DNA of 63,880 nt, filler included, from Vannella sp. (Eukaryota), in assembly GCA_023345925.1 (NCBI GenBank). It is 7 parts of 7 records of this genome, joined end to end, with 100 filler letters (N's around TTAATTAATTAA, not from the genome) between each part and the next. Parts side by side here need not be neighbours in the genome. Positions count along the whole stretch, not along the records: positions 48,689 to 58,657 come from JAJQQN010000857.1; 6 more parts are not named here. One strand, given 5' to 3'. Under the pieces are notes generated by a model. That model was not told where the DNA came from and ran no database searches. It worked only from the letters and a program-made list of their open reading frames with translations. Below are positions 9,057 to 58,657 of this stretch, one piece after another (position 1 is the first letter of the stretch; the number at the start of each line of letters is the position of its first letter). Both the position numbers and the translations under genes were made by a program.

Positions 9057-11513
9057 ATGCGCGGTGGGTGGGACAAGAGCTCTGTCGGAGACTTTGTCAA
9101 TGGACAGTTTGTTGCAGCTCCTCTTGGTGCTCCTCGTGTTGCTCCTGTTGCTCCTGTTGCAGAGGATCTGAGTGAGTGTCTCCCTCCAGGTCTGAAGCTA
9201 CCAGTGAACCGAGCAGGTTCCTCGGTTCCTTCTGGGCTGGTGGACCTTCCTGATTCAGGTCCTTTCCCTATTCCCCGGTCTTCATTTGAGCAAGAGACGT
9301 CTTTCTATCGAAGTGAAGCAGCAGGCCTTCTTCCCCTTGGCTTGTTTGGAAGTCCGCAATCTTCCCCCTCTCTCTTTGGTCCCCCTCAAGCGGGCCCAAC
9401 GCCCCCCTTCGGAGCTTCCACAAGAGTGTTCAATGTAAGTGACCTTGAGAATCGGTTGACAGCCGAGTCTGCCAACCCTGGAGGGAGCTTCTTCAACCAG
9501 CCAACTGAACCGCCTCCTTTTCGGCAGTTTCTTGGCGTAGAGGCTGCCTATCCCATCTCACAACACCCATATCAGGTCCCTGGTTATGGTAGTGCGAACT
9601 CAACCGATGCAGAAAGTCTCTCTCATATGCTGGAGCGCGCACGTCTCCAGGATCCACCAGGAGGTGCATTCCCAGAGCACCAAGCGGCGGAAAGGCGAGC
9701 TTTTTCAAATGCTCCGCCGCAGCAGAACTTCAGGGAGCCCTTCGCAGGGTTGGGAAGCCCCTCTCCTGCCATTCGCCCTTCCCGCGAGGAGCTCTTCGCA
9801 ATGCAGCAGCAACAACAGCAGCAGCAGCTCCAAGCATTACGTAACATGAGTCCTCAGATGCAAGAGCAGTACATTCGAATGCAGCAGCAGCAGCAACAGG
9901 AGCAACAACGGTTGTATCAGATGCACATGGCGCAACTGAGAGGGATGACGCCGCAGCAGCAACAAGAATATCATACCTTTATGCAGCAACAGCAGAACCA
10001 GAGAATGTCTCAACAGCAACCTCAATTGAGACCATTCCAACCAGACGGAAGGAACTTCAATGAGGTCCAGAGACCTTTTGCAGCCACAGAAGCACCCCAG
10101 GAACCTCCACTTATAGCTAGAAGAGAAGAATCTTGGGCTCACACCCCTCAAACCCAGGAGAATCGGCAAACTCCACAAAGCGAAACCGGCAATGCTCGGC
10201 CCCCAAGACAGAGGCTGGTCGTCACTGATGTTGGCCCAAATGATCCAAAGCTGACTCCAGAGGAAGTTGGATTTATTGTGACGCGCATCTCCGATGAGGA
10301 AATCGAACAGCTGGAGCGGGAAGAGCGGAAACAGGAAGAAATGTCAAAGATCATCCTTCCTCCCCCTCCACCCGATGACAGGAGGACTGGCACTTACCTC
10401 ACTACTCGTTCTAAGCGTATTCTCGGGAAGGTATGAGCTTTCCATTGAATGCAATGCTCCTAGCTTACATCATTTCAGCTGCCTCCCCTTCTTGAGAGAA
10501 AGGAACAAAGGATCAATCAGGCTATCACTTCACTGCTAGAGACTCTGCAACCCCCTTCGGCTGCCAAAGCCAACAGGGAGAATTTGCTGAACAAGATGCA
10601 ACTCATTGTCGACTCCATTTGGCCAGGCAAGGGAGCCAAACTTCATCTGTTTGGTTCAAGTGCGAACGACTTCTGCCTGAAAGGACATGATGTTGATATG
10701 TGCCTCACAGTGGATCCACTTATTGGTGAGAAGGCTGACATCATCACTCTTCTTGCAAACGCATTGCCACCTGACCAAGTGAAAGATGTTAATCCTATCA
10801 TCTTTGCTCGAGTACCTATTCTGAAGTTCAAAGATATCCAAACTAACCTCTCATGCGATATCTGCATCAACAACATACTTGCTCTTCGTAACACGAAGCT
10901 GTTGGCCGACTATTCTGCAATTGATCCACGGCTCCGTATTTTGGTGCTTGTGGTCAAATTTTGGGCTAAGAGGCGCTCAATTAATGAGCCGTTCACTGGC
11001 ACTTTGAGCTCTTATGCGTACGTTCTAATGTTAATTCAGTTCCTGCAAACTCGAAGTCCCCCTATTCTTCCCTGCTTACAAAGAGCCATTGATAGCAACA
11101 CCCCTCAAGTCACCATTCAGGATTTCAATTGCACTTACAATGAGGACATTGCCAGTTTTAAGAACTTTGGAAGGAACAATAGAGACTCACCGGCTAAGCT
11201 CCTAGTGAACTTCTTCCAGCTCTACGGATTCGAGTACGATTACATTCATTCAGTTATCTGCGTGAGAACAGGCGGTTTTGTCTCCAAAGACGCAAAGCAG
11301 TGGATGATCCCTTCCAATCCCCGCGAGTGTTCCTTCTTTGCGCTTGAAGATCCCTTTGACACAACTCATAACTTGGGCCGCGTGGTTCATCGAGTGGGAG
11401 TGGAAACCATCCGCAATGAGTTTGAGCGCGGATACAAGATTCTGGTCAAAACTGGTGATTTGGAGCGAACCACACGGCAGTACACAGAAGAGAACCCAGA
11501 CACTCGATGGTGA
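9057..11513 (+). CDS. Cid1/URT1-type terminal uridylyltransferase (~802 aa) with long disordered polyQ N-terminus; intron 10431-10478
   Basis: LFGSS...DVDMC...CDICINN catalytic aspartates, GTLSSYAYVLM, and LEDPFDTTHNLGR (nucleotide-recognition motif with the His typical of TUTases). Confidence 0.9.
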
Positions 11514-12858: not shown

Positions 12859-14318
12859 ATGCTATTCCGTGGGGCGACCTTCCGGATTGTCAGGAGATGC
12901 GCTGTTTCCCACGAAGAAACGCTGATGGAACGAACCATCGAATGGGCAACTGGTCTACCTGGAGTAAGCTTTATCGATGAGTTCAATCGTCCGCTGACTG
13001 GCCTCCAGAAAGAAGCTTCCCCAGAAGTCCAGGAAGTCCTTGCCGATGTGCAATCTCCTGTCCACAAGGCTGCTCTTGTGGCCATCTGCAAACACATACA
13101 GGTAAAGCTTGCCTCAAGCCCACTGTGAATCAGGCTGAGATCCTACAGAAGAGGACCTATCTCATCAGGAGGAAGGACTTTCTCCTCTTTGCAGGGGGTC
13201 CAATGTTATTGGAGCCGTATGGGTCTCTACAGAAGCTCCTTCAGCAGAACACAGATCTACTTAGCACTCTCAATACCAATGCTCCTCGCAACTACTGGAA
13301 GGATCAGTCCCACCAGCGCGCATTCTTGGAGTCTCTGGCGTCTAGCAAGGGACTGTCCGTCCCAGACCAACTAGATCAGATCTCAAGAAACGAAATCGTC
13401 CAGTCTGGCGGTCGTCAGCTCCTGAGGCAGCACCCATCTTTGTACTCGATGTGCAAAGCTCTATATCCGGACTTCCCGTGGACGTTGTCCTCGTTTGCCA
13501 GGACTCCACGGGGATCTTGGGATAGTACATCAAACCAGAAAGAGTTCTTCGACCAGATGATCCAAGAGTTACAGCTTCCTAGTCCCCTCAGCCTCGCCGA
13601 GATCTCTACCACCGAGGTGAAGGAGAGAGGAGGGCGCTCAATCATGGACAAGTACCCCTCCTACTACTCTTTGCTACGAAAACTATATCCAGAGCAAGAT
13701 TGGAGCATTGCTCGCCAGCGAATCCCACGAGGTCATTGGGGGGAAAGCGCGAACGTTGCTGAGTTCGTGGAGGCTGTGCGCCAGACATACGCCATCAAGA
13801 CGAAAGAGGACTGGTATCGAGTATCTCTCAATCAGCTGGGAGAGATAACTGGAGGAGATCGCCTCCTTCGATTATATGGTGGTCTTGGCGCTATCCTCGC
13901 TGAAGTCTATCCTGAAGAGCACTGGGATACCCTTCGCTTCAAGAAGAGAGACAAGCGTGCTGCACAGCGCTTCCTGTTTGTCCAGCTCAGCCGCCTCTTC
14001 CCCGCTTACGAGATTATCGAAGAGCACAACCATGCGGATGCTACACGGCTTTCTGGTCAAACAGTGGAACTGGACGTCTTCATACCCGCTCTTGGCTTAG
14101 CTTTTGAGTATCACGGGGTGCACCACTACAAGGAGACCACAGCTTTCGGTCCCATCGAGCTGTACCTCGAAAGGGATCAAGAAAAGCTGTCTTTGTGTCG
14201 CCAATGTGAAATAGAACTGGTTGTAATACCCTACACTTGGGATGGTAAAATCAGCAGTCTCAGGCAACAGATTCCCGCCCGTTTTTTGGAACAAAGCGAG
14301 GAGAAAGGATTTCATTGA
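12859..14318 (+). CDS. Repeat-array + Vsr/DUF559/RAP-like PD-(D/E)xK nuclease-fold protein (~470 aa), putative organellar presequence; intron 13102-13148
   Basis: N-terminus MLFRGATFRIVRRCAVS. Three ~74-aa repeats (PRxxW...F...GGxxLL...YPxxxW) plus a partial one. C-terminus ELDVFIPALGLAFEYHGVHHY...RDQEKLSLC...IELVVIPYTW. Confidence 0.8.
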
Positions 14319-37194: not shown

Positions 37195-40100
37195 TTAAAT
37201 CCAAGCGGCCCATCCCTCGTACATGGAGGCGAGGTTGGAAGAGCTGGTGGCTTCTCTGATGGTTTGGTCGACTTGGTCTTCGACAGAAGCGTGGTGAGCT
37301 CGGAAATCGTTGCCTTGAAGCTTGGATTTGATGCGGCGCAATGCACTGATGGCGTATGTGTTGCGCTCTTGTTGGCAGTGGCCGGGGCTCTCTCCTCCCT
37401 CTTCGTCTCCTGATTGTAAGAGTGGTTCAGTGATCCCTTCCTTCTGGTCTTCCTTCCACTGAGCGAGCTGTTGTGTCGCTGCTTCACCAACATCTCTAAT
37501 CTGCTGGGCAAGTTCCTGTAGCGTTCCCAAAGTTTCCGGCAAATTGACTTTTCGTAAAGTTGGCTTCGCATTTGACTCTGGATGAAGCAAGGTTTTAAAG
37601 AGTGGCTGCCATTCTTCCTCATTGCGTATCATGAGAGCCCTGTACTTGGAATAGAGATTCTTGGTAAGTACATAAATGGCAGAGTCTGAGGCGGTTTCCA
37701 TTTGTCTTAGAATATGTCGGACAAGCGGGATGATGGCTTGGAAATGGGACAGAAAGTGTGAGAGTTGTTGAGAAAGAGAAGTCGCTTTGCCCAAGAAGGA
37801 TTTCGACTTCAGAGCGAGTTGCGTTTCCAGAGATTGCGTTGACGCACTTTGCTGTTGGGCCAGTTTCGTGTGATGAATCAAACCTTCTTTGTTGCTTTGA
37901 TAGGCGGTTCTTCTTTCCTCCAGTTGGATGGAGATATCTTTGATGGACTTGTGATGGGTTTGCAACATGTTTTGGTGATTAGTGAGTGCTGACAGCAGTT
38001 CTGAGGTCTCGTTCCAGATGTCTTTGGACTGATTGGATGAGGAGTTGTGGAGCTCTTCAAATGAGGCGATTCCTTTGCAGATTTTAGTGAGCTTCCGGAC
38101 AGCTTCTGTCGAGGATGTGAAGGCTGCCTGACGGGCGATAATCTGTCCGTGGACGAGAGTGTGATATCCTCCAGATCTTCTTTCCCAAGATACGAGCTCG
38201 TCTGTCTCTCTTTCGTTCTCGGACAAGGAAGAATGTTGCTTCTGAAGGAGCACTTCCTGCGCTTGAAGCTCCGATGAAAGGGAACTCAAGCGGCTTCGTA
38301 TTTTAGAGAGTGGAGTGGTTCCATCATCCAGAAGGCCTTCATGCATCAAGCTGAACTGAACGAGGAACTCTTTTTCTCGTTCAAGCGAAGTTCTGAACAA
38401 GTTCACACGGAGTTCATGATCACGCTCCAAAAATTGACCAGAATAGAGCTCCATGAGAGTATTCCGCAAACCCTCCACAGTTTCACCTTCACTCAAGGAA
38501 GGATTACTCGTATTCAGATTCACACTCTCTTGAGGTGCACTTGAAGGATGAGGTCCGCTGTTAAGCAAATTGCAAGCAGAGGCGAAGATGGGACCAATCA
38601 CGTTTGATTGAATGCAACCCAAATATGCTGAAAGGAGCTTGGTGGCGCTGTTGTATGTGGTCAGAGAACAAGATGAGTCAAGAGATAAAAGCTCGTTCAG
38701 AAGCTGGAGCTTCTGCAGCCCGAAAAGGTCGAGATGGAGGTGCATTACATTCTGAGAGCTTTCTTTTTGGGATAAAGTGGCTGCTTTTGCTAAAGCAGAG
38801 GTCATCAAGTCCAATTGATCCAATAAATACAGAATCTCCTCTTGATTGACGAGCATAGATCGTAGACTCTCACTGGAGTGGAGGATTTGGTGTTGGCAAA
38901 GATCAATTTGGTCTTGCAGAAGGGATGTACGTTGTTGCAAATCCTGTTGCGCAACTTTTCTATCTTCCATCTTCCGTTGTAGATCTTCAATTTCTTCATT
39001 ATCTTCCCAAGAGTGCTCGGTTACTGCATCAAGCTCTTGGATCTTGGCCTGAGTTGAACAAATTTGCTCTGATAGTGTAGAATCATCCTCACTCAGTCCC
39101 TCCAGCTCACATTGAGACTGTTGAAGTTGCTGAAGAGTGCGAGAGCACTCAATAAGAGCAAGTTCTATCTGGTTTCGACCGGAGCAAAGCTCATCTTTCC
39201 GCCCTGCAATTGTCATGATGATCTGTTCGAAGGAGCTCTCCATTTGGTCCAGAACTCCAGCAATTGCGGTGAAGAGTTGCTCCACAGACAGGCTTGTGTC
39301 TGAGGCCAGAACCAAGTCTATTACAGCACGAATTCCACTGACATTTGAAGCAAACCCTTCTGGCCAAGTTGGCTGCTCACAGAATTTGGACGCCTCGCGA
39401 GACAGAACTCCACAAAGAGATGTAGGGTTTACATGTCCTATTCGCGGTCTTACTGAGGAGGGCATCCGCTTGGCACCATTCAGTTCAGCCAAAAGAGACT
39501 CAGTATTTCTGAGACGGGTTGAAAGCATCTGGAATTCGTCTAGTAGCTGATGATTTCGTTGGTCTGAAGTCTCTAATTCTAAATCGAAGTCTTTTCCTGA
39601 TCTTTGACACTTGATAGCGAGATTAAGGGCTTCCTCTGTGTAAGCCACTTCATGGTCGCTCCAATAGGTTGGAGGTAGGGACACTGTTATGTCCTTGTAA
39701 CTTCCTAACAAACTAGTACATTCCAAGACTAGCTCCTGCAACCGAAGCTGGCTTTCTTGGTACAGTTTTAACGCCCCTTGGAATGGCACAATGATATCTG
39801 GTCGTTCAATCGACAAGCTCATCAGTTCTGAAGACTTATCAAAATCATAAGTTGGCTCAGAACGAGCGAGAGTTTCTGATAGCTTCTCAAAGGTGTTTCC
39901 ACGTAAGGAAGAAGTTATTTCCTCAATTGCAAGTCGCTCATCCTTTCTCTTTCTTGATAACTGTTGCAATTTCACTGAGATTTGTTGCTGAGCTGTGGTT
40001 GCCTCGTGAATGAGCCTTTTTGCCTCCTTCTGTTCACTCATAAGCTCAAGTTGCCTTGATTCTTGCTGAGTAATACTCTGCTTGAGCGCACATGCCTGCT

Positions 40101-43100
40101 GGGAGGCTTCTCCAGCTTCTTGGGAAAGTTGCAGTTGTTCTAGCTTAAGTTGAATTACAGAGGAAGCACGGGCAATAAGTTGGTCTAACTCTGGTATAAA
40201 GCCGAGAGAATTAGATAGATTATCTGCAGTACCAGGAGCGCGAGCAGCGAGTAGCTCCAAGTTGGTCTCCAACTCCATTCGTAATTTGGCTTGACTCTCG
40301 ACTTTGTCGAGAGTCCAATCCACCAAAGGGTCGTAGACAAAAGCTTCGAGGAGGGTGAGCAGAATCTCCTTATTTGATCGGAGGACATTCAATGTACTGC
40401 AGCAAGACGCTTGGAAGGTTCCCTTCGTTCCCGTCGGTCCGAACGACTTTGTTATCAGATTAGTTAAACGGTACGGGACTACTTCAGGTATCGCTAGCTT
40501 CAGCCCACGTTCAAAGCAGATGTTGTAGTCGATGTGAATGATCTCTCCACGTGCAAGATCCACAAGTATGTTGTCAAGGTGGCGATCACCAAGCCCGAGG
40601 ATGTACCCGATCATGGACATAACTGCAACAGAGCGTGTGAACGCAAGTTGCTTTCCCCACCAATGATCGGCTGTTGGAGAGGCGCACCAAAGTGCTCTCT
40701 CTAGCAGGTCAGCAGGAGCCTCTTTTTGTAAACTGGTGAAGACTTGTTGGAGGACTTCAGTTGGCCAATGCTTGCGAGTTCTCAAACTCATCTCTGAAAT
40801 GCCAACAGCCTGGAGGGCAGGCTTCATGGCTGCATTAAACTGTTCAATTGGGCGGAGAGGCACTTGTTTGCGGGTTTGCCAGTGTTTGTAAACCTGGAAC
40901 ATCGGCACTGCTCCATCTACCCACTGAATGAATCCGGAACGTCTTCCAGTGGGAATCACAGCGTAAGTCCGAGATGCCAGACCTTTGGTATCTGGTCTAC
41001 TGTGTTGGAAGAGTTGATTTGCTACTGTGAGGCACTGCATTATGCGCTCATCCAAGTGTAGATCCTCCCTACCTTTGAGAAGGTATGGATACTTCCTTCC
41101 ATCGCTTCCGAGCAGCGCCATCTTTTTAGGTTTGGTCTTCGTTGGAAGAATTGATATTTGTGGGCGGAAAGCTTGAACAGTCACTTCGCAGGAAGACAGT
41201 CCAGGCATTCTGATGATAGACCCTTGCATTCGTGCAAGCTTGGGACTGACATCTTGCAAGCGTAGCTGGGTTTTCATGAGTTGGGCGAATTGGTCTTTGA
41301 TTCTGTCTAACGATTGCCAAGCTTTCCAAGGATCTCCGTAGTCAACAGGAGAGCGGAACTGTTCCACAGCACTGAAGAGCTTTGGCTTGAATTCTTTTTG
41401 GAAAGCTGATTCAAACGGAGTCTCAGCGGGTCGGTTCAAAGTTTCCATGTAGTCTGCAAGCTGCAGCAAAAACAGTTTCATCAGAGATTGATACTTTTCC
41501 AAGATCTGGCGGTGATGTTCTTCTTTAGAACCGGAGGAGGAGAGGATTCTCCGATGCTCCTCTCTCATTGTATTACAACGAGCAGGAAGGCGAGAGGCAA
41601 TCTGCTCCAGAAGAATTAGTCCTGTCTCAGGCCAAAGCACTGTGAGTCGTTCAAATTCACACAAAGTAGTTTGAACTTGGTCATAGAGCAAAGGATGAGC
41701 CTTTTGCAGAGAAATTGCCAACTCATGGATGCGATGATGCCTTAAAGTACCAATTTGATACTCCTGTTCTCCAACTAGGATAGGATACATGATCTCATGT
41801 GGCCGATCCACTCCTAGTTTCATGATGAGGCGTTGGACTTCAGCTTGTATCGAAGAATCTGGATGTCCAAGCCGTGAAAACAATTGGGGAATGATACTGT
41901 GCCATACTGCAACTGAGGTTCCCTCAAGGCGATTTGAAAATGAAGATGCCACCTTGGTTCCATGTTTTGTGAGAACTTCAAGGATGCGCAGGGTTGCTGA
42001 GATCGTTTTTACGGCGTTTTGACTCCCTTCTGTTTGAAGAGAGATAAATTGGAAGTAGGAGTGCAATGCCTTCTCATGGAAAGACCAGATGGTAGACTCT
42101 TGGCTTCTTTTCAATTCACAAATAGCTGTGATGGTGTTTTCTGAAAGGTCTGGAAAGTTATTCGCCAAAACCATTGGGGAGCAATTGGGATGTTGCACAG
42201 CATTGAGAAATGTACTCCAATCTGTTGGGGTAGCAATTGCTTTGAGTGCGGATATAAATTTCCTTTGAGCGCGGTGAGCTTGCTTCCAGCACCAATCAGC
42301 CAGTTGAAAATGTACATTGGCAGAGGACGGCAGCGTCATTGTGGCGACGAAGAACGATTGTCCAGAAGCACAATTAGCATAGCTACTTCCGGCTGCAAGC
42401 AGGTCCTCTTTAAGAGGTGAGAATGGAGCTGAGTTATCTTCTTCTAGCCAGTTACTGAGTAAATGCAATGCTTCCACAGCTACTTCTGTGGATTGAGTCA
42501 GGACAGCCTCATCGATAATTAGGTGTTGAAGCTTGGTAAGAGCCACTCCAGGTTCATTCAAACGGATCACTTTACAGCGTTCTAGTTCCACAGATAATGT
42601 AGCAGGGATCATTGCTGCAATGCGTTCGTGCAGTCTCAAATTATTTTGTTGTCGAGCCAATGAAAGGTGAGGAAGTAAGTTATCTCCTGGGTTTCTGACT
42701 GTCCTAAGTAACATATTGCTGCAGCTAGCACCAATTTCGGATGAAAGCGCCACCCTCTCGGGGCCTGACTGGCTTTTTGAACCTGAGGCACATTGAAGAG
42801 CTATTTGGAAGGGAAGAATTTCGTTTGGATTGGAGGAAGTTCGTAATCCGGTTCTGCAAAGCGTCTTCAAATTGACTTGTTTTTCTTCGGAGGGTTTGGC
42901 AAGGTAGGAGAGTGCTTGGACATACACTTCATTTTGGAAGTCTGCTAACGAAAATCTCTTCTCTTGTGAAGCAATGACTGGAGCTGGTAACGAAGACTCG
43001 CTCTCCATATGATACAAGGCAGAAACGTATGAAGACTTATCATGGAGCGCGGTATTAACGCGATTTCGGACCTTCGTTGTGAATTGTTCCAATGAAAGAA

Positions 43101-46100
43101 GATTCCAGTCTCCCAGAGCAGCAGCGCACTCCACAAGACGAGAAGTCACAAAATTCGTTGTTTGATCAGAAAGGGGAGTTTGGCTGCAAAGAATCTGGCG
43201 ATACTGATCAGCTGCTGCTTCTAGCTGCTGATCAGCTTGATTACGGATTGCTTCGATCCAAGGAGCTTCAATTCCAATTGGAAAAGGAGGGGCGAATCGA
43301 TTCAAGAAGTGTTCTACATAACCAATCAAAGCATCACTTTCCTTTGCTATACATAGTGCTAATGCAAGTTGTGACAGGCAGTATTCAGCGTCAACTCTGA
43401 CGGCTGAGGTGGACTTGAAGGTTTGGGAATCAGCTAATTCAGTAAGGCGACACACTGAATGATAGATAATAGATGAAAGGTTGCCACTGACTACAGAAGC
43501 AACAACGGCTGGTTGCCGCATTCTTGCAAACCAATCGACACACACTTTTCGGTTATCCACAAAGAACTTGATCCCACTTGGCAGCGAGGACGCAATAGTA
43601 CCCTCACCAGCAATGAATATTCGCTTTTCCAGTAAATCAACAAACTGGAGGAGGGATTGGAGTGCTTGAGGAGATTCAGGGCAAAGAGATGACACAGAAA
43701 TTGGGGCAGAAGGATACTGAGGCTCCCACTGAGCAACATTCCAAAGCATCTGCTCAATAGCTCCGAGAGTTTTCATGGGGCTACCAAAATGGGTAGTGAG
43801 AAAAGCATTGATGCATAAATTGACAGCTTCCCACGACATCCAGAAACGGGCGATTCGGATATTAATTCCTGAAGCTATTTGCACGACTTGCTGAAGGGCC
43901 TCTGTATCGAGCGAGCTGTCAGCCTCCAGTTGTTTGGAAAGCGAGGATGGCAAACGAGTCAATTCTAAGAACCGATTCAGAAACTCTGATGAAATGGTAC
44001 ACTGGTGAGGAGCTTGGAGAAAACTCATGAACTCTTGGAAGTGAAATCCCTTGAAAGAGCGAGTGGGAGGCATGGTTAAAATCGCAAACAGGGTTGAATC
44101 CATCATAGTGGTAAACCTTTCTGGCGGGGCTAGTTGGAAAGGAAGTGATTCTAGAGCAGTTGCTGCTAGTCCTTGAATCGCTTCCGATGAGTCAGCAAGA
44201 CCAAACCATGCAAGAGCACGGATTGGAGAAAGGAGAATCCCGACATCTTTTGCTGGGGACTTGGTTAGTAGTTTGCATAAAACTATCCAGGCACTTTGGC
44301 GAATTGGGTGATCCACATGACTAAGAAGAGGAGTGACTGCAGGAAGGACACACGAATAGAGGTTATCGATCTTGTGGTCAAGAGAAGCATTGATAGTATC
44401 AAGAGCTAATAGAATAAGTCTTTTGTCATTCACTTTGGTTGTTATGTCCTTGAGAAGCTCAAAGACTCCCTTTACAATCGGATCAATAAGCTGACAAAAA
44501 GAATCACGAATGAACAGGTGTTGAATAGTCACTAAGGTACAATATTGAAGACGAGGGGACCTCATTATTGGCTCGACGTTCACAGGGTGATACTTTTGGA
44601 GGATGACACTCAACAGTTTAGCACTGTTTTTGAGAAAAGTTTCTCCAGTAAGGACCAACATGTCAAAACAGAAAAGCACACGCGATTGTGAGGCAGAAAG
44701 CACTCTGCTTCCTAATTCATTGAAAGTCAGACTGTGCAGAAGAAAATCCATCTCCTCCTCTATCAACAATTTCAAACTTCGGAGAGTGCTACTCTGGGCG
44801 AGAATAGAGTATGTCCCAAGAATAGCAGTGGTTATTCTACCGCTCCTATGATATCTTAAGCGAGCAAATGCTGAATGAGTGTCAAGTAGTCTCTTGAAAG
44901 GAGAGAACTGGGTGAGCATCCCCAGCAGGGAAAGCACAGAATTATTCAGCTCCAGCAAGCTTACTGTCATGTCCTCAGACAGAGAGGATTCAAGCTGTAC
45001 AAGCAAATAGTCTACGCACAGGGGGTAGTGAGCAGCTCGACTGCTCTCACTCATAGTTCGAAAGCAACGAAGTATCCAGTGATTGACTTATATCTGTTAG
45101 GGAAATTGCCGAATAAAACGAGTGGCGTTTACCTTGTGATTGCCTGATATTCGTATGGAGACTAAAGGCGAGGAGGCTGGTCAAAATCTCGCTCATTTGC
45201 TGCTCCATATTGGTAACAATCCCCGGGACAGTGGATCCAATGGTCAAAAAGCATCTGCACATATGAGTCGATAGGTTCTTCCGAGTGGTAGTCATCGTAC
45301 GAAAGAAGTGCTTGATAAATGGATGCTGTTTTTGCTTTAACGCGCTGGTAGGGGAGAAATGTTTCCACAGAGGAGTGCATTTGGATGCAAAAGCTCTGCA
45401 TGAGACCTGATGTATACCTGTCGTTGACTTTCCAAAGAGGAGCGAAGGTAACAAGTGTTTCCTCAATTGCCTGGCAACTTAGCTCCGGTAACTGCTCAGC
45501 TAATCGCCAGCCCAAGAGAGAGTCAACAATTGTCTGTCACGAACTGATGAGAGAAGGTTGTTTTTGTGATCAGGAGAGGCCTACCACGAAGTAAGGCGCG
45601 AATTGGCTGGTGAAGCGCTGATAGATCATCCGGATCACTTGGATGAGGTATGGGAGGCGATCGACAGTTATTGTGGAAGAGAGAGCTCTAAACTGGCGGA
45701 GTATTGAAGCTATTAAATGCCAGGGGAGGGCTACTCGGGCAAACTGTTGGAGAAAGATGAGCGCGAACCGGAATGGGGAGAGGATCTTAGTACCCCAGCT
45801 ATAACTCTCAAGGAAGCTTCTTGATAGCGTTGATCTTGACATCCTCGAAGTAGCCAATCAATCCCATACGAAGGAAGGACAGCACAAACCAAGGAGATGA
45901 TCTCTACCACGTTTTCTTGCTCATGCGGGCTTCTCTCTGTTAAGAGGGCAAAGAGAAGAGTTGAGAGAACTAACCGAGATGATGTTATAATGTCTTGAAG
46001 GGCAGCTAAGGCATCCCCAAGGTCACCCGACATGTTGGCCTCCTTCATTTGATCCAAGATGGGGCGGACGTTGCTCAAAAGCTGGTGAAGAGGACCACCC

Positions 46101-48688: not shown

Positions 48689-49477
48689 ACCTGTACACCC
48701 CTGGTGGTCTTCTCGATCACATCCTCTCGACTCGTTCTATCAAGCTGGGCTACTTCCAAGCCTTGGCTATCCTCCCTTCCTTCAAGGTGGAGAACGGCGC
48801 TCACTTCCGGTTTCTATCCCGAGCTGGCCAAGGCGTTGATGTCTCGCGTTGCTGACCACTATGACATCTCTGACATTTCCATTGAATGGGTCTCCATTGC
48901 AGCAGCAGCTGACTTCTACCCCAGACACGTGGCTGGAGACTACGACGTCATCTTCATGGATCTCTTCAAGTACGCGATGTGGAGCGCTCCTGTCGCAGAA
49001 CGAAGCCAGCTTTGGGACTTCTCTTGCGCCACACTCTCTGCCAAACCGATACGTTACTACGTCTGCCCTCTGGCCGTCTCCGACGGCATCAACACCGCTT
49101 CGCCCTCCACCATCGATGGCCCTTCCACCTCCGTCGGGTTCATCGGAGGAGGTGCACAAGAGGCTCAAGCAAGAAGGAACTTCCCACGCTCTGACTTGAG
49201 AGTGATCGCTGACATCACCACTTTGGTGGATTTGTGCAAGAACAGCGGCATTGACATCGTTGTTGAGCTTCCCAGCCGAGCAGAGGCTGCTTTGAAGGGT
49301 ATTTACTCTTCCAGTGGCCCCATCGGAGCAGGTAACAGCGTTGGTGCCGCCTTCCGCAAGGATCGCCTCGTTGCAGCCCCCACACCCAATCTCGCCACCG
49401 TACAAGACAGCAACAGCAGTGCCTCCTTCTCCCTCCTCCACGTCCTGCTTCTGGCCACTCTCCTGGCTCTCTTCTAA
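48689..49477 (+). CDS. 5'-truncated surface protein resembling type-2 periplasmic solute-binding (SBP family 3-like) fold, with GPI-like tail
   Basis: SGFYPELAKAL...IEWV...GDYDVI...ERSQLWDFS pattern; C-terminus SNSSASFSLLHVLLLATLLALF. Confidence 0.6.
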   Translation, partial: TCTPLVVFSITSSRLVLSSWATSKPWLSSLPSRWRTALTSGFYPELAKALMSRVADHYDISDISIEWVSIAAAADFYPRHVAGDYDVIFMDLFKYAMWSAPVAERSQLWDFSCATLSAKPIRYYVCPLAVSDGINTASPSTIDGPSTSVGFIGGGAQEAQARRNFPRSDLRVIADITTLVDLCKNSGIDIVVELPSRAEAALKGIYSSSGPIGAGNSVGAAFRKDRLVAAPTPNLATVQDSNSSASFSLLHVLLLATLLALF

Positions 49478-49592
49478 GAAGACTCGCTAAAGATTGGTCC
49501 AATACGGACCTCTTCTCCTCCCAGGCCCTCCTTCTCCCCCAAGGGAGGCTTCTTCTTGGTTACATTTGATTGCATTTGATTGGGAGGCGGTG

Positions 49593-51080
49593 ATGGTGAA
49601 AGGCAAGAAGACCGGAAAACGGAAGGTGGCGAAGCAGGCTTCGCTTCCTCCGCTGGAACAGTTGGTGTTGAAGCTTCACTTCACAGGTGAGCTTGTACGT
49701 GGGTTTCGACCGGATCTGATCCGCTTGGAGAGCGGACTGGATGGGCGCGGGCGGGGTTACTTGGCGTGTGAGGCGATCCCTGCTGGGAAGCTGGTGCATC
49801 GATCAGCAGGGTATATCTTCTCTCCTACTGCGCCTCCTGCTGCGTTCCTTTCTTCAGTCCCGAAGGAGAAGCAACTCTCCGTCCATTTGCTCTCGCAGTT
49901 CGTGGACCGTCTGGAGGATGCCAGCTTCCCTACTACTCACCTTCACCGTCTCCTGAGTGAAGTGGTATGGAAAGGTCTTCAGCCTCAGAACCTGGACGAG
50001 TGGGAGGGAGCACAAACTCCTGAATCTCGCCTCATCGCCGAGTTGTACTGCCAAGCGACTGGGAGACCCAAAGAGCAGGTCGATAAGCTCGCACGCTTAG
50101 GTCTGATCGCTGTAGTCAACTCTCATCAAGTCCATTACGAGTTCGCCCAGCAAGTGAGCGATGATTGGGGTGTTTTCCCTTCTGCTTCGTTCTTCAATCA
50201 CTCTTGCTGGCCCAACTGCACTGCATTCTATTCCAAACAGACCAACGAGTTCTGGGTTCAGAGTATCAGAGACATAGCGCCAGGAGAGGAGCTCTCCATC
50301 AACTATGTCAGTCTTTATCTCCCTCGAGATGAGCGGATGTCCAAGCTTAGCCTTCAGTATGAGTTTGTGTGCAACTGCAGCAAGTGCAAGAGAGAGTGCA
50401 ACCGTATTGATGACTATTTGGAGGGTTTTAACTGCCCCAAAGAGGGCTGCAATGGTGCATTCCTTATGCAAGTGATTCCCGGTGACTACACTGACCGTGT
50501 ACCAGCCAGCGCTCTCTTCCTAAAGTGCACTCGCTGCGCTTTCCAAGAGAACAGCTCAGATGTAGCTGAGGAGCACCGGATAGCCATGGAAGGGATCATC
50601 TCGAAAGTAAGCCAGGTTCAAGCCGGGGCAAACGAGAAGGGTTTGGAGGAGCTCGGTCAGATTCTCTCTGCTGTTGAGAAAGAGATTAAGCAGTGGCTGC
50701 ATCCCTTCCATTCGTATGCGTTCCAGATGAAGATGGCGCGCGCCAAGCTCCAAAAGTATATTACAATGATCGATTCCGCTACCCAAGAGGATGTTATCGT
50801 TCAGGAAGGTGAATCTGAGGCCCTTGCCAAGCGCAGACACAACTTGGAGCGTCTTTTGGATGCTCTGGAGCAGGTGAACAAACTATCTGCAGTCATCTTC
50901 CCTCCCAACCATCCCCAACGAGCCCACATCCTTTTGGACATGGGGAATGTTAACAGCATTCTCGACCGCCCTGCACTTGGCAAGAAATTCATCACTCAAG
51001 GCTTGCAGATTCTCACAATCTCGCGGGGCGAGCAAATCGCCAAACAGCAACTCCAAAAACTGTTCTCCACGGAGCGCTAG
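49593..51080 (+). CDS. SMYD-like SET-domain lysine methyltransferase with helical C-terminus
   Basis: GRGRGYLA, FFNHSCWPN, GEELSINY, post-SET FVCNCSKC. No MYND finger seen. Confidence 0.88.
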   Translation: MVKGKKTGKRKVAKQASLPPLEQLVLKLHFTGELVRGFRPDLIRLESGLDGRGRGYLACEAIPAGKLVHRSAGYIFSPTAPPAAFLSSVPKEKQLSVHLLSQFVDRLEDASFPTTHLHRLLSEVVWKGLQPQNLDEWEGAQTPESRLIAELYCQATGRPKEQVDKLARLGLIAVVNSHQVHYEFAQQVSDDWGVFPSASFFNHSCWPNCTAFYSKQTNEFWVQSIRDIAPGEELSINYVSLYLPRDERMSKLSLQYEFVCNCSKCKRECNRIDDYLEGFNCPKEGCNGAFLMQVIPGDYTDRVPASALFLKCTRCAFQENSSDVAEEHRIAMEGIISKVSQVQAGANEKGLEELGQILSAVEKEIKQWLHPFHSYAFQMKMARAKLQKYITMIDSATQEDVIVQEGESEALAKRRHNLERLLDALEQVNKLSAVIFPPNHPQRAHILLDMGNVNSILDRPALGKKFITQGLQILTISRGEQIAKQQLQKLFSTER

Positions 51081-51506
51081 AGCAAGCAGCTGTTCCCAAA
51101 CTGGCTTTCCTCGTGCCATCATCAGTACCCGCCCTTTTCAGAAAAGTGGTATTCCAGATATACACTTTACTTCTCGCTCCCACCCTTTCAAGGAACCTCC
51201 AGATTACTCCAAGCCAGTCAGTTGGTGTAAAGGAGAATTGTTTTAGTCGAGGGACTGGTTGCGGTGAACTTCTCTCTCTTGGCTGCCTTAAGTAGCTATG
51301 CAGTAGAGGACCAGAGTCCCTATGGACCCATACGCCTGGTTTTAAAGGCCACAGGAGTGACAAGTTGGGTTCTTCGAAAGGAGCCAAGACTTACGAGTTG
51401 GTAGCTCCCCTTTGCTTCACCATGGGCTCATTCTACTTTGGAACCCTTCACATAGGACTACTGGATGTAAGAAGAAGGCCAAGTTGATGAAACAAGTCAT
51501 TTCTTG

Positions 51507-54496
51507 ATGTTCTCGCGGGGATGCTCGCGCCTTGGGGCTCTCCGATGGCTGCCCTTCGTAAGGAGGGTATCGTTAGTGAATGATGTGGGCATTGTGACAA
51601 GGAGCATGTGCTCCCTCTCGATCTCTCAGCTGGGAGGCCAAGAGCAAGAGCATCGCGTGATTCTGGAGAGGATTTGGAGGGAGAAGGGCGGTGACCAGAG
51701 CTTGCAAGACTGGTGGTACAAGACTCCTCTCGTAGGTCTTCGTCGATGTGGTGCTGGACCTGTTCTACGTCACTACCCGTCGATCAAGGAGTGCCTTTCT
51801 CAAGGTGAGCGGATTCGCCTTGCTATTAGGAGGAATCTCAGCTTGTGTAGTCTATCCTGAGCACGAATGGGATCCCTTTCACTTTACACACAAGCCTAGA
51901 CACTTTTGGGACTCACTGGACAACCAACGAGAGTACATGAAGCGATTGGAAAGTCATTTCCACGTCAAAGAACCGAAAGACTGGCTTTCTGTCAATGTTG
52001 CACACTTCACAAAGGAAGGAGGACTCACCCTCTTCCGAAAACATCCCTCATTTCAAGCTCTCCTCCGGGCAATGTACCCAGAAGAGTCTTGGGATGCCTT
52101 TCAATGTCGGACACCTCGCCGCTATTGGGAAGATAGCGGCAATGTGAGGGCTTTTTTAGAGGGCTTTGCAAAGAAGAAAGGAATGCTGCAGCCCGAAGAC
52201 TGGCTTTCTGTCTCCCACGGAAGCATTAAAGAAGTTCCTGGAGGAAGCGGATTCCTTTCGTGGTACAACTACTCGCTGATAAGGGCTCTGGAGATGGCGT
52301 ATCCCGAAGTGTCTTGGCGTCAAATGAAAGATGAGAAGCTTTCTGTCAAAGCTGCAGCAAAGGAGCCTCTCATGAACGTGGCAGAGATGCGCCAAACTTT
52401 TGATGCCATCGGCAAGGAATTGGGTGTCCAACACCTTGATGACTGGTACAAAGTCTCAGTTTCTGATATTAAGAAGCGCTCCAGCTTCATCCGTAAGTTC
52501 CCGAACAAACTGGAATGCTTCCGGACTGGTGAGTCTCTCCGATGAACCAACCCGTTGGCTCACTTTTGGGAGTGCCACAGTGTATCCAGAGCATAACTGG
52601 AATGCACTTATGTTTGACAGGGTTCCCAATCGGTGTTGGGCGGATCCTTTGGTGCAAAAACAGTTCTTTGAAACTGTCAAAGTGACGCTCGGAATCGAGA
52701 CAGAAGGACTCCTTGCTGTACCAACAAAGGAGTTCTGTCGCTTGGGTGGAACGGGACTGATGAAAGCGAATAAGAGCCGTAAATATGACGTTATTCTGGC
52801 AGGTAAGACAGAGCTAACTGTCAGTTACAGTCACATCTCACCTCCTTGGACAGTTTATCCAGAGCTTAACTCACAAGCTTCAGTGGCTCAGCAAGATCCA
52901 GAATACTGGAAAGATCTGGAACGTACAAAGGGCCTTCTAGAAAGGATTCAAGGGCAATTGAAGATTTCTTCTCCGCAGGATTGGGACAAGGTGTCCATTC
53001 GTTGTTTCACTGAATTGGGAGGTGGACCAATGCTGCGCTCTTTCGGCAGCTTGCGGGCAGTTCTGTCAGCGGGTACGTGCTAATGAATCACTCCGCCTTT
53101 TAACAGGTCAGAATAGTTTACCCCAATCAGGATTGGGCGCATCTTTCGCAGCACGTTCCAAACGGCTACTGGAAGATGCATTCCCACCAGCTCCAGTATT
53201 TCAGAAAAGTAATGGAAAAGGAACACCTTTCATCTCCATTGGAGCTGAAAGACGTTTCCAGGCAGACTCTCTTCGATTTGGGAGGAAGAACTCTCATTAA
53301 CTCTTTCCCTAGCTATTACGACTGTCTCACAACAGGTTGGGCTTCGCGTCACTAACTCCACTGAATCTAACTGGGTCTCAGTGTTTCCAGAAGAGCCTTG
53401 GAATGTTTTCGACTTCCCAAGTCTTCCTCGATCGTTTTGGAAGCAGAAAGAGAATCACAGAAAGTATTTGGACTGGCTTGGTAAGAAGCACAACATCCAA
53501 TCACCACAGGATTGGCAACGCGTTTCCGTGGATGACTTGAAAAAGTCGCGCGGCTACAAATTGCTTCAATTCTATGACAGTTTCTTCAGCGCCTTGCAAA
53601 AGAACTATCCGGAACACCACTGGGATGTTTTTGAGACTCGAAGAAACGTCCCCCGGAACTACTGGAAGGATCACAATAACTGCCGACTCTTTCTCGACCA
53701 ATTTGTGAAAACTCATAACATCTCCACTGCAGAGAACTGGTCGCGCATCAGCAAGGTAGATATCATCAACTTTGGTGGCTCAGGTCTACTTTATCGTACT
53801 GGCTTTATCGCGATGATTCGGGAGTATTATCCGGAGATGAATTGGAAGAACATTGTTATTCCTACCCGACTTCCAGCAGGACACTGGGATGATGATGATA
53901 ACATCCACCAATTCATCAAACAATTTGAAAAAGACTTTCGAGTTAGACGGCCGAGTGACTGGCTCCGTATCTCGTCCAAACAAGTGCGCGACGAAGGCGG
54001 TCAAAGTCTCTTGAAGAAGTTTGGAGGCCTCTTTCATCTGTGCCAGTGGCTACATCCCGAACATGAATGGGATGAAGCTGACTTTAAGAGCCGTGACAAA
54101 CGCTCTGTCCAACGCCTCTTGTTCGTCCAATTGCAAGAGATCTTCGCCGGGCAGGAGCTTGTGGAAGAGTTCATCCATGATGGTCTAACAAGGAGACTGG
54201 GCCGTGCAGTTGAGTTTGATGTGTACCTTCCTGACCACCAAATTGGCATCGAATACCACGGTCGCCATCATTACGACGACATTCCCTCCTTTGGGATGCT
54301 CGAAATGTACCAAACGCGCGACACCGAGAAGATCACCCTCTGCCAAGAGTCCAACATCACACTAGTGGTCATTCCTTTCTGGTGGGACTGCTCCATTGAC
54401 AGTCTCTGTGGCACTTTAGGACCCCTTTTGGCCGACCGATTCCCCCAAACCTTTCCGAGGCCCTTCAATTGTCCCATCAGCCTAGTGCCCCATTAA
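51507..54496 (+). CDS. Ten-repeat array + Vsr/DUF559/RAP-like nuclease-fold protein (~916 aa), putative mitochondrial presequence; exons 51507-51804, 51851-52528, 52581-52802, 52854-53072, 53117-53335, 53382-54496
   Basis: Five GT-AG introns join four ORF-track fragments plus one missed exon into a single frame. C-terminus EFDVYLPDHQIGIEYHGRHHY...RDTEKITLC...ITLVVIPFWW. Confidence 0.85.
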
Positions 54497-54559
54497 ATAT
54501 TATTTTAATGCTAATTTTAAGGTCAGAATCGTTGAAGGACCATTTTTTGGGGTGGCGAG

Positions 54560-55241
54560 ATGGTGAGCTTGCTCCAGGAAGGGGAAAGGAGCGGGATTGA
54601 CGGGAACCGCGCAGATCCACTTTGTGTTGTTGCTTAACCGTCAAGGCAAGGTGCGACTGACCAAGTGGTACTCTCCTTTCAGCCAGAAGGAGAGAAAGAG
54701 GACTGTTCGGGAGGCTACCTCACGGTATGCGTCTCCTTCCGCTTGTTTTGAAGCTGCTAACTCTCAGCGGTCGATGTTGTAGAGTTCTGGGTCGTCCAGA
54801 TCGTCTCTGTAACTTCATAGACTGGCGAGACTACACGCTCGTCTACAAACGGTGAGTTTGCCCCTTTCAGGAGCGCTGTTGGCTCATAAGCACGCGAAGG
54901 TACGCGAGTCTGTACTTTGTCTTCTGTGTGGACAAGAACACCAACGAGCTGATCATGCTGGAGACCATTCACAAGTATGTTCTGGCTTTGGACCGCTATT
55001 ACGAGTGCGTGTGCGAGCTGGACATCATCTATGGCTTCGACCAAGCCTTCTACATTCTCGACGAGTTCATCATGGCCGGTGAGGTGCAGGAGACGAGCAC
55101 ACGGCTCATCCTCAAGCACATCTACGACCAAAACGTTCTTGAGAAAGCTGAGGTGCGTCGCTCGCCTCGTCTCGGGGGAGCTGTCACTAACACAAGTTAC
55201 CGTAGGGGAAGAAGACTGGTCTGGCAGCTATCATGTCCTAA
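54560..55241 (+). CDS. Adaptor complex sigma subunit, most like AP-1 sigma (multi-exon; first exon is ATG only)
   Basis: MIHFVLLLNRQGKVRLTKWYSP, VYKRYASLYF, NELIMLETIH, VCELDII. Confidence 0.9.
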
Positions 55242-55786
55242 ACGCCCCGTCCTGGTGGATAAGACCAGTCTTCTCGCGTACAAATGAAGGATTTCCTTTT
55301 CTTTTGTCCTTCCTAGCTGCGCACCTCTCCGTACGGGGCTGTTCTTCGGTATGAAGTCAAAGCGGCTCCGTTCTTTATTGGCTCATGCCCAAGAGAAGGA
55401 GCCATACTCAAGGAAATGAGAAGTTGAAGAGAGAAGGGGAGAAGAGGCCGACTCCCATCTCTTGAGAACGAAACGTACGAGTTACATTCATTGAAGTGGT
55501 TACTTCCAAAGTCGTATGACTCCTTCTTCACCTGCAGTGGCCAGGAACCGGTCCTGACAATGGCCAATCAGACAACTCAATCGCGTGGTTGGTTGCTTTG
55601 TTTTGCTTTTGTGTGGGCTTGAGAGAGCGGTGTTATAGAGACCAAGTTTGCAATCACATTGATGTGTTGCACTTGGGCCAAATGTCATTTTGGCGGGAAA
55701 TCAAAGAGTAGCAGAGGCCGCAATTTGCCTCTTTTTCTTCTCCACTTGAGTAGGTACTCTTTTTCTTCTCCACTTGGTACCTGCCC

Positions 55787-56290
55787 ATGTCCTCTGAGGA
55801 AGCCATTCCTCTCCCAAATCTTGACATCAAGCAACTTCGTCGTCTAATGGGTGAAATCATTACTTTTAGTTCAACAGGCGATAACGAGTTCCACCTCAAG
55901 CACAAGATCTTACGGATTGTTGAAGACTTTGATATGCCTGCAACTGTTGGGCATGCTGAGATTCTGAAACAACTGAAGAAGTTGAACACCAACATGACTG
56001 AAATGCACGCCACGCTCATCCGCCGAACCAGTCTTCAACACCGCAAGAACCAAAAGGGTGGAAACACCATTCACTTGGTTCCTCTGCCGAGTGGAAGAAT
56101 CCCTCAACTCGAGCCTTTTTTTGGTGACATTGCCCCCACCAGCAACGTCAAGTCCATGACCAACCCCCAGCTAGATGCTGCATTGAAGGTCTACGGTATC
56201 CACTCTGTGCCTGAAAAGGAGCGCTTGGACTACTTCCTGCAACTTCTCGGTTACCCAGTAGAACTGGACAGAGAGGACGAAGATGAGTGA
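55787..56290 (+). CDS. Hypothetical protein, C-terminus resembling Mug135-like/DUF1773 domain
   Basis: Short coiled coil, then LVPLPSGRIP...QLDAALKVYG...LQLLG. Family assignment from memory of the motif only. Confidence 0.5.
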   Translation: MSSEEAIPLPNLDIKQLRRLMGEIITFSSTGDNEFHLKHKILRIVEDFDMPATVGHAEILKQLKKLNTNMTEMHATLIRRTSLQHRKNQKGGNTIHLVPLPSGRIPQLEPFFGDIAPTSNVKSMTNPQLDAALKVYGIHSVPEKERLDYFLQLLGYPVELDREDEDE

Positions 56291-56785
56291 TTGATGCGCT
56301 CATTGGCATCTGGCAGGTCCGAAACTCATTCTGAATAAACCCCATTTCCAAAACTCGTGTTTGCATGGAGAAAATCCTCGGAGCCAGGCGACCACCTGCG
56401 CAAAGAGGACCTTCACAAAAGGGCCCCATAATTGATGGCGACTGGATGGAATCGTATTTTTATATGTTTTTAGATTTTCAACTTTCTGTGTCCAACTGCA
56501 CAATCGGTCGCTCAGGCTCGTGGATTCTCTCTGAGTGTCCTGATGACCTCCGCCCCTTCAGGATAAGCTTTTGGTCTGATTTCATTTTTTGACTTCTGGG
56601 TGCTCCAAAGTCAAATGAGGAGAGTCATCTCCACTCACTCGTAGTGACTTTTCGGTCGCTGTTCCAGAAGATGCTCTTGGTTCGTCCAATGTGGAGACAT
56701 TCCAGACGGTGAAGCCAACCGAGGTCAGGCAGCAAAAGGATAAACGGGGTCAGAGAAGGAGGTGGAACGAGTTTATCGCGGCTTC

Positions 56786-58629
56786 TTACATGCGGAAGAT
56801 GCCAAACTGCGTCGGCTCAATGGGAGCGTTAAGAGAAGAGGAAAGGGCGAGGCCGAGAACACTGCGGGTGTCCTGGGGAGCGATGACACCGTCGTCCCAA
56901 AGGCGAGCAGAGGCGTGGTAGGGATGGCCTTCGCTGTCGTACTTGGCGCGGATAGGGTTCTTGAAGTCCTCTTCCTCTTGAGCAGGCCACTCCTTTCCAC
57001 TGCGCTCGAGCTTGTCGCGATGGACAGTCGCCAGAACGGAAGCGGCTTGTTCTCCTCCCATCACCGAAATGCGCGCATTTGGCCACATCCAAAGGAAGCG
57101 AGGGCTGTAGGCACGTCCACACATACCATAGTTACCCGCACCAAAGCTTCCACCGATCAGAACAGTGAACTTGGGCACATTCGCGCACGAGACGGCGGTC
57201 ACCATCTTCGCTCCGTTCTTGGCGATGCCGCCTTCTTCATAGGACTTGCCTACCATGAAGCCAGTGATGTTCTGGAGGAACACCAAAGGAATGCCGCGTT
57301 GGGAGCACAGTTCGATGAAGTGAGCGCCTTTCAAAGCGCTCTCGGAGAAGAGAATGCCGTTGTTTGCCACGATACCAACGGGCATACCGTGGATGTGGGC
57401 GAAACCAGTGACTAGAGTCTCTCCGTAATGCTTCTTGAACTCGTTGAACTCGCTACCGTCCACCAGACGCGCGATAATCTCGCGCACATCGAAGGGGATG
57501 CGCGTGTCCGCTGGGATGATGCCAGGTAGCTCGTCTGCCGAGTACAAGGGCTCTTTGGGTGCTTGAAGCTTCACCTTAACGAGAGTAGTGAGCCAAAGGC
57601 AGTACTATGAAGCTGCACGACGTACCAACTTAGGTTTCTCGTAGTTAAGAGTGGAAACGATCTGTCGGGCGATAGCGAGAGCATGAGGATCATCTGTCGC
57701 CAAGTGGTCTGTCACACCAGACACCTTGCAATGCAGATCAGCGCCTCCCAAGTCCTCCGCGGAAACAACTTCGCCAGTCGCTGCCTTCACCAAAGGAGGG
57801 CCTCCCAAGAAGATGGTGCCTGTCTTACGGACGATGATCGACTCATCTGCCATGGCAGGGATGTAAGCACCTCCTGCAGTGCAGCTGCCCATCACAACAG
57901 CAATCTGAGGGATGCCTTTGCCGGACATGCGAGCTTGGTTGAAGAAGATCCGTCCAAAGTGATCGCGGTCGGGGAACACCTCATCTTGGCGAGGTAAGAA
58001 GGCGCCACCAGAGTCGACAAGGTACAAGCAAGGCAAGCGGTTCTGCTCAGCAATCTCCTGCGCTCGCAGGTGCTTCTTCACGGTAATGGGATAGTACGTG
58101 CCTCCTTTAACAGTTGCATCGTTTGCTACGATCATGCACTCGCGCCCATGGATGAGCCCAACGCCAGTAACGATGCTGCCTGCAGGCACGTCGTCTTCGT
58201 ACAGCTTGTAGCCTGCAAGGGGAGACAATTCCAAGAAGGGAGAGCTACAGGGGTATTAGCAAACGAAAGGGAAGGCTCTACAGGCCGTACCCAGTGTCCA
58301 GCAAGCCCTGGATTCGCTCGCGAGCCAGAAGCTTTCCCCGCTTCTTGTGAAGGGAACGGGCTTTCTCATCGCCTCCCAGTTCGATCCGAGTAACCTCCTT
58401 ACGTAGATCCTCGATCTGCATGTTCAAAGCTGCTGCATTGTCCTGCATCAACGAGTTACAACACATCCCTCCCCAACGCGACCCAAACTACCTTAAACGC
58501 CTGAGAGCTCGTGTTCACATGAGTAGGCAACACATTCAGAGAGTCCGCATGCTGGGAAAGAAAGCCAGCCGAAGCCACCCGCCACAACCCCACCGAAGGA
58601 GCCCGAAGAAGCCTCCCCGCAGCCAGCAT
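56786..58629 (-). CDS. MCCC2: Methylcrotonoyl-CoA carboxylase beta subunit, mitochondrial (4 exons)
   Basis: [59 protein letters not shown]; Arg-rich presequence. Confidence 0.96.
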
Positions 58630-58657
58630 CGAAAGAATGAGCCCGCCAGGCCCTCCA

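Follow-up and report, generated by a model that had tools for sequence, protein, structure and literature searches.

The subject of this report is a repeat-encoding gene of Vannella sp. (GCA_023345925.1), located in a stretch of 63,880 nucleotides (nt) that was analysed as a whole (hereafter the window), positions 48,689-58,657 of which correspond to JAJQQN010000857.1. From the reading of its sequence, the locus at 51507..54496 was recognised as belonging to a nuclear gene of a eukaryote, encoded on the + strand, and its product was found to carry a long array of tandem repeats followed by a nuclease-like domain. Five predicted introns interrupt the array, and all five are placed at one and the same position of the repeat. 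We consider it rather likely that this periodic layout was inherited from old tandem duplications of repeat-length DNA that already carried an intron, and the introns are predicted to be spliced constitutively. Duplication of an intron-bearing unit is the best reading because the periodicity lies far beyond chance and because relatives share the habit of one intron per repeat, elsewhere in the repeat.

After removal of five GT-AG intervals, the locus is read as one open frame of 916 codons, with all exons and introns on the + strand. Exon 1 (51507..51804, 298 nt) contains the start codon, an Arg-rich, presequence-like N-terminus and the second half of a repeat (residues 45-99), and is followed by intron 1 (51805..51850, 46 nt, GTGAGC..TGTAG), which splits a Val codon as G|TC before YPEHEW. 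Exon 2 (51851..52528, 678 nt) encodes repeats R1-R3 and ends at intron 2 (52529..52580, 52 nt, GTGAGT..CACAG; G|TG before YPEHNW). The next three exons encode solely one repeat each, namely R4 in exon 3 (52581..52802, 222 nt), R5 in exon 4 (52854..53072, 219 nt) and R6 in exon 5 (53117..53335, 219 nt), and are separated by intron 3 (52803..52853, 51 nt, GTAAGA..GCTAAC..GACAG; G|TT) and intron 4 (53073..53116, 44 nt, GTACGT..GCTAAT..AATAG; G|TT). Intron 5 (53336..53381, 46 nt, GTTGGG..CACTAAC..CTCAG; G|TG before FPEEPW) then leads to exon 6 (53382..54496, 1115 nt including the stop codon), which carries R7-R9, a capping YPEHEW motif and the C-terminal nuclease-like domain. Each intron is in phase 1, and each split Val codon is followed by YP or FP. 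A branch-like motif (CTAAC, CTAAT or CTCAC) was read by eye in four of the five introns. In the neighbouring gene, named AP-sigma-like from its translation, the introns measure about 48-57 nt and have the donors GTGAGC, GTATGC and GTGAGT; since this is the same type of intron, short introns are considered normal for the genome of Vannella sp.

To describe the register of introns and repeats, a hidden Markov model (HMM) of 74 positions was built from the gene's own repeats and refined on 168 relatives. Nine full matches were obtained with this model (E 1e-13 to 5e-30, all nine significant), and their edges fall exactly at the spliced junctions 99|100, 325|326, 399|400, 472|473 and 545|546. The codon at HMM column 1 is the one interrupted in each of the five cases, and the internal exons are flanked by introns of the same phase. 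The initial annotation of this DNA had claimed five phase-1 introns, each splitting a Val codon before [YF]P, as well as internal exons of 678, 222, 219 and 219 nt, all multiples of 3; the intron positions were confirmed at sequence level by the splice signals, the 916-codon frame and the HMM register, and the exon lengths were confirmed likewise. For five introns placed at random on the 222 nt of the repeat, the probability of a single common position was calculated as 4e-10, or as 1e-7 if only a quarter of the positions are eligible. An intron is contained in only five of the ten repeat junctions.

The intron-bearing junctions also differ from the intron-free ones in the residue encoded. Val is found at all five junctions with an intron and at none of the five without (M, A, N, Y and L; Fisher p = 0.004), and the same residue in 668 repeats of relatives is Ile in 33.5%, Val in 20.1% and Leu in 17.7%. 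The splice donor favours G as the last exon base, and among Ile, Val and Leu only the Val codon begins with G. We propose that this preference accounts for Val at all five intron-bearing junctions, since splitting the codon as G|T places a G at exon position -1. Intron and codon are apparently coupled, as if the splice site constrained the coding sequence at the Val junctions.

One predicted intron per repeat at a fixed column recurs elsewhere in the family, which makes use of two registers. A shorter paralog of 470 residues is encoded in the window at 12859..14318 (+), with one exon at 12859-13101, a phase-0 intron at 13102-13148 (HIQ|KRTYLI) and a large exon at 13149-14318. According to the initial annotation, the last exon of the main gene matches the layout of this paralog. 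The agreement holds in that three repeats and the nuclease domain share one exon in both, and fails in that the large exon of the paralog begins with an additional half repeat and its intron is in phase 0 and elsewhere in the repeat. This intron sits in the leading half repeat, within one codon of the intron column of the metagenomic locus L012. The paralog begins with MLFRGATFRIVRR..., an N-terminus that is also presequence-like, and lies about 1.3 kb downstream of an open reading frame (ORF) at 10464-11510 for a MTPAP-like (mitochondrial-type) poly(A) polymerase.

A scan of metagenomes gave 23 loci, 11 of which had repeat matches; junctions were read in L012 and L015, L006 was compared by its frame breaks and L016 and L017 by their HMM matches, and L003 and L014 gave no clear intron layout. 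In L012 (4756-6130), a phase-0 intron is found at one HMM column in three of three repeats (LGITK|ASDW, LGVKQ|LSDW and MGIQN|PEDW), and two more introns are present in the nuclease part, one of them cutting the conserved motif as EFQ|ERHHY. Two phase-0 introns were read in L015 (4760-5330), at LGVKK|HSDW and IGITQ|PEDW. The frame breaks of L006 (1590-2900) are the same as those of L012, the HMM matches of L016 are those of L015, and L017 has a single match ending at the same column. Sequence identity to L012 is higher for the paralog (32% over 324 residues) than for the main gene (27%). By our mapping, both registers, Val|YP in phase 1 and the position before xSDW in phase 0, correspond to loops between predicted helices.

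With respect to age, the repeats are mutually 13-38% identical, and comparison of the introns against shuffled sequences gave z < 2 for 10 of 10 pairs, with nothing in common beyond the splice signals. The lack of residual intron similarity is expected if the duplications are old, and their age is probably ancient. A repeat-level phylogeny across paralogs, which the initial annotation had named as a check, was then made with 43 repeats from 9 proteins, matches covering fewer than 56 HMM columns being dropped. R7, R8 and R9 were found to pair one-to-one, and in the same order, with repeats 1, 2 and 3 of the relative P0001, which is 70% identical to the last exon; starred support was obtained for R7+r1 and for the clades containing R8+r2 and R9+r3, and nuclease-adjacent repeats cluster across proteins. 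R3-R6 are long branches without stable placement, and the tree leaves 22 of its 40 inner branches open and does not trace the descent of R1-R6. Among the relatives P0001-P0004, whose identity ranges over 48-70%, P0001 begins exactly at the Val position of intron 5, and P0002-P0004 begin inside the equivalent of R7; these starts fit a break of the ORF at the R6|R7 junction in the relatives too. The arrays of the transcriptome-derived relatives P0007 and P0013 are uninterrupted. Duplication of a block, with R1-R3 corresponding to R7-R9, was also considered and was left as unproven, the in-register identity of 30% (122 bits) being no better than the 28% (117 bits) between R1-R3 and the paralog, and the tree being without such pairing.

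Under the preferred reading, a tandem duplication of one repeat including its intron would have copied the intron to the matching column of the new repeat, in unchanged phase, and repetition of this event would have led to one-repeat exons (R4, R5 and R6) with a phase-1 intron on either side. The stretches that lack introns (R1-R3, and R7-R9 with the nuclease-like domain) either would never have had them or would have lost them, and the introns of the present gene would be ordinary constitutive introns.

Several observations weigh against this reading. R4, R5 and R6 were placed apart in the repeat tree and form no clade, and their joint clade was not rejected by the approximately unbiased (AU) test (AU p = 0.448); as R4-R6 do not form a clade, the direct signature of exon-by-exon duplication is missing. 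The Val|YP intron (class A) was found in none of the 11 metagenomic loci with repeat matches among the 23 retrieved, the introns of L004 and L009 are at non-periodic places, and L001 is free of introns over four repeats. The phase-0 sites follow AAG or CAG in five of the six cases read, a context resembling a proto-splice site. Finally, all five junctions of the main gene are themselves predictions from sequence. The growth of the array by exon duplication, as put forward in the initial annotation, is plausible in view of the periodicity and of the periodic relatives.

An unlikely account of the same layout is that the repeats were amplified first and that introns were inserted later and independently, at a favoured site in the same conserved context. 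The presence of two periodic registers in one family could indicate such a site preference instead of inheritance, and for the phase-0 register the proto-splice-like context makes gain more possible. The classical proto-splice site has G after the junction; at the five junctions of the main gene the exon flanks are AAG|T, CTG|T, CAG|T, CGG|T and CAG|T, none of them with G at this place. Independent gain would also need an extreme site bias, with five insertions matching on one nt of 222, and no shared intron sequence that would mark a mobile intron family was detected. We hold it quite unlikely that the gene model itself is partly wrong, with junctions displaced by a few codons, intron 3 being coding, or the gene being in decay. 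Such an error is suggested by alternative in-frame GT..AG pairs near every site, including another acceptor for intron 1 located 9 nt upstream that adds three residues, and the repeat-HMM score does not separate the alternative junctions (594.0 for several of them). Intron 3 can be read through: it is the sole intron with a length divisible by 3 and no in-frame stop, and its retention adds 17 residues at a repeat boundary with the protein frame unbroken. Retention of intron 1, 2, 4 or 5 leads to a frameshift and an early stop. R3-R6 also show the lowest scores against the family profile (38-56 bits versus 70-91 for the other repeats). Against these points, the donors of the alternative pairs are poorer and the proposed ones are the best GTRAGT matches, both as read by eye, the period of 73-77 residues runs without gaps through the spliced product, the nine repeats are significant, and the family-conserved residues of the nuclease domain are intact.

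The initial annotation had further proposed that exon skipping or intronic recombination could add or remove modules in frame, possibly reprogramming specificity. In such a working cassette system, exons 3-5 (and exon 2) would be skipped, or gained and lost by recombination between introns, changing the number of modules and the recognition. Skipping of exon 2, 3, 4 or 5 is indeed neutral to the frame and rebuilds the V[YF]P junction, and the number of repeats in the family spans 3 to 25 among the 168 relatives retrieved. The frame is kept because of the geometry alone, which is not evidence of use. Introns of 44-52 nt without mutual similarity give homologous recombination nothing to act on, the repeats diverged long ago, and R7-R9 are collinear with P0001; the proposal is left without support by these features, and we regard a cassette system as very improbable. 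In genomes with introns as short as these, splice sites are probably recognised in pairs across the intron, and skipping of exons is considered uncommon. Nothing suggests that the gene architecture is used dynamically, and inheritance of the layout from old duplications of intron-bearing DNA is the reading retained below.

The spliced product is composed, in order, of the presequence-like N-terminus, a half repeat, nine repeats of 73-77 residues, the capping YPEHEW and the C-terminal domain. On inspection by eye, Arg is abundant and acidic residues are scarce in the N-termini encoded by the main gene and by the paralog. Five helices are predicted per 74-residue repeat. An AlphaFold model of the last exon was obtained with a predicted local distance difference test score (pLDDT) of 83.7, and by structure comparison of this model residues 238-354 of the last-exon product (54095..54445, +) were assigned a predicted PD-(D/E)XK fold of the Vsr/DUF559/RAP type. 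The best structural match of this domain was the catalytic domain of I-Bth0305I (3r3p_B; Z 10.6, root-mean-square deviation (rmsd) 2.6, 98 of 98 residues aligned), followed by Vsr (1cw0_A, Z 9.6) and the DUF559-like NGO0050 (3hrl_A, Z 9.4). Comparison with RAP-type chains, spanning residues 238-359, gave Z 9.0 for a mitoribosomal chain of T. gondii (9g6k_Ld; rmsd 2.4, 96 aligned), Z 8.4 for the RAP module of FASTKD4 (9gek_A; rmsd 4.2, 106 aligned) and Z 7.3 for 6z1p_AS. Foldseek probabilities to 1vsr and 3r3p_A were 0.98-0.99. D279, E290, G293, H296, D313 and K316 (last-exon numbering) are kept in at least 90% of 74 relatives, and the domain contains the near-invariant motif E-[YF]-x-G-x-x-H, which we take to resemble the DUF559 motif ExDGxxH.

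For the repeats, a model of two units had no Foldseek match at E <= 0.001, and with the whole model the matches to mitoribosomal repeat-RAP chains were weak (E 0.018-0.26; template modelling (TM) score about 0.2). A fold assignment from VIA-align was not accepted, as its best Z was 5.0, to small helical domains covering one repeat as a small bundle. Searches with the last exon and with a 12-sequence profile against the sequences of solved structures gave no match at E <= 1. Mitochondrial import is predicted for the protein, and, by analogy with repeat-plus-RAP proteins, its helical modules might hold nucleic acid for the nuclease-like domain.

Work by Street et al. in 2006 and by Paladin et al. 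in 2020 is said to deal with introns and repeat-protein genes. As in arrays formed by tandem exon duplication, each unit exon of the layout described here codes for a single repeat, the introns agree in phase and in their place within the repeat, and the exon lengths are multiples of 3, so that units can be added in frame. Symmetry of exon phases has been described as a mark of module exchange (PMC3632108), and the introns of spider silk genes are reported to define the boundaries of ensemble repeats (PMC9779670). The present gene differs from exon-duplication arrays in the small size of the genome's introns (about 45-57 nt), in having an intron at just five of ten junctions, in copies too diverged to trace the parentage of exons, and in the phase-0, mid-repeat register of its relatives. 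The exon-per-repeat pattern is already known, and what is new is an example of it in an uncharacterised repeat-nuclease family, not a new mechanism.

The order of N-terminal repeats and a C-terminal PD-(D/E)XK-like domain is common to the repeat-plus-RAP organellar RNA-binding proteins (FASTK family, OPR-RAP, HPR-RAP and mitoribosomal RAP). RAP proteins have been described as variable helical repeats with a conserved C-terminal RAP domain (PMC8190603), and the RAP domain as having probable endonuclease activity (PMC13126933). The Vannella protein differs from these in that it has no match to Pfam RAP and in that its repeat is a unit of 74 residues and five predicted helices, not a helical hairpin of 34-40 residues. 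With the Vsr, DUF559 and I-Bth0305I endonucleases it shares the top structural matches of the C-terminal domain and the E-[YF]-x-G-x-x-H motif, whereas at the sequence level no solved chain was matched at E <= 1, and the predicted nuclease here follows a presequence-like N-terminus and a long repeat array of eukaryotic origin in one protein.

Database searches indicated a large repeat-nuclease family without a Pfam name. RAP (PF08373) was matched by none of the six exon products (E <= 1) and by none of the 74 relatives (E <= 0.01). DUF4046 (PF13255) was likewise matched by no exon product, and weakly by 2 of the 74 relatives (best E 9.4e-4); DUF2726 was matched by one of the 74. For exon 2, the Pfam matches Zn_ribbon_Dof (E 0.028) and NTP_transf_5 (E 0.056) were weak and sub-threshold and were dismissed, and no exon product is recognised by Pfam. 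The search for homologs of exon 2 retrieved only the identical 265-residue ORF product P0169 of a public collection. In an exhaustive search with the last exon, 6675 cluster representatives passed E <= 0.001 and 963 of these also passed E <= 1e-30, and a word-indexed collection gave 12 + 9 relatives. As leads only, a protein atlas gave a similarity of 0.88 to DUF4046, and its neighbours include clusters from Tubulinea and giant viruses; the automatic name of the atlas cluster is 'RAP domain-containing protein'. Four loci were found in a scan of viral contigs, matching the nuclease part alone. The term 'DUF4046' was not found in the literature search, and no paper describing the 74-residue repeat family was found in this search, which was not exhaustive. 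It appears improbable that these proteins constitute an unrecognised class of modular nucleic-acid-targeting proteins, made of 74-residue five-helix modules and a Vsr/RAP-type nuclease, in which the exon-sized module, delimited by introns of equal phase, would be the unit of evolutionary re-targeting, possibly also by skipping of the symmetric exons in the cell.

The other genes in the window are ordinary nuclear genes (patatin, NBR1-like, MTPAP-like, VWA, LRR, RCC1, SMG1 and SET). Between the stop codon of the repeat-nuclease gene and the downstream AP-sigma-like gene there are only about 70 nt (region 54494-54575), a very compact spacing, and the ATG of the latter is immediately followed by a short intron. 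On the - strand at 37195-45087, a single frame of 2630 codons encodes a SMG1-type PI3K-related kinase with PI3_PI4_kinase, SMG1 and FATC domains; this frame is unusually long and intron-free for an intron-bearing genome.

In the gene of Vannella sp., a microbial eukaryote whose introns are tiny, the period of a protein repeat is marked very cleanly by the positions of introns. Together with its relatives of the other register, it provides a natural test case for distinguishing arrays that grow by copying of exon plus intron from later gain of introns. The layout of the family is like that of the organellar repeat-plus-nuclease RNA factors and uses a repeat of another kind, and its members may therefore merit study as possible new sequence-specific organelle factors.

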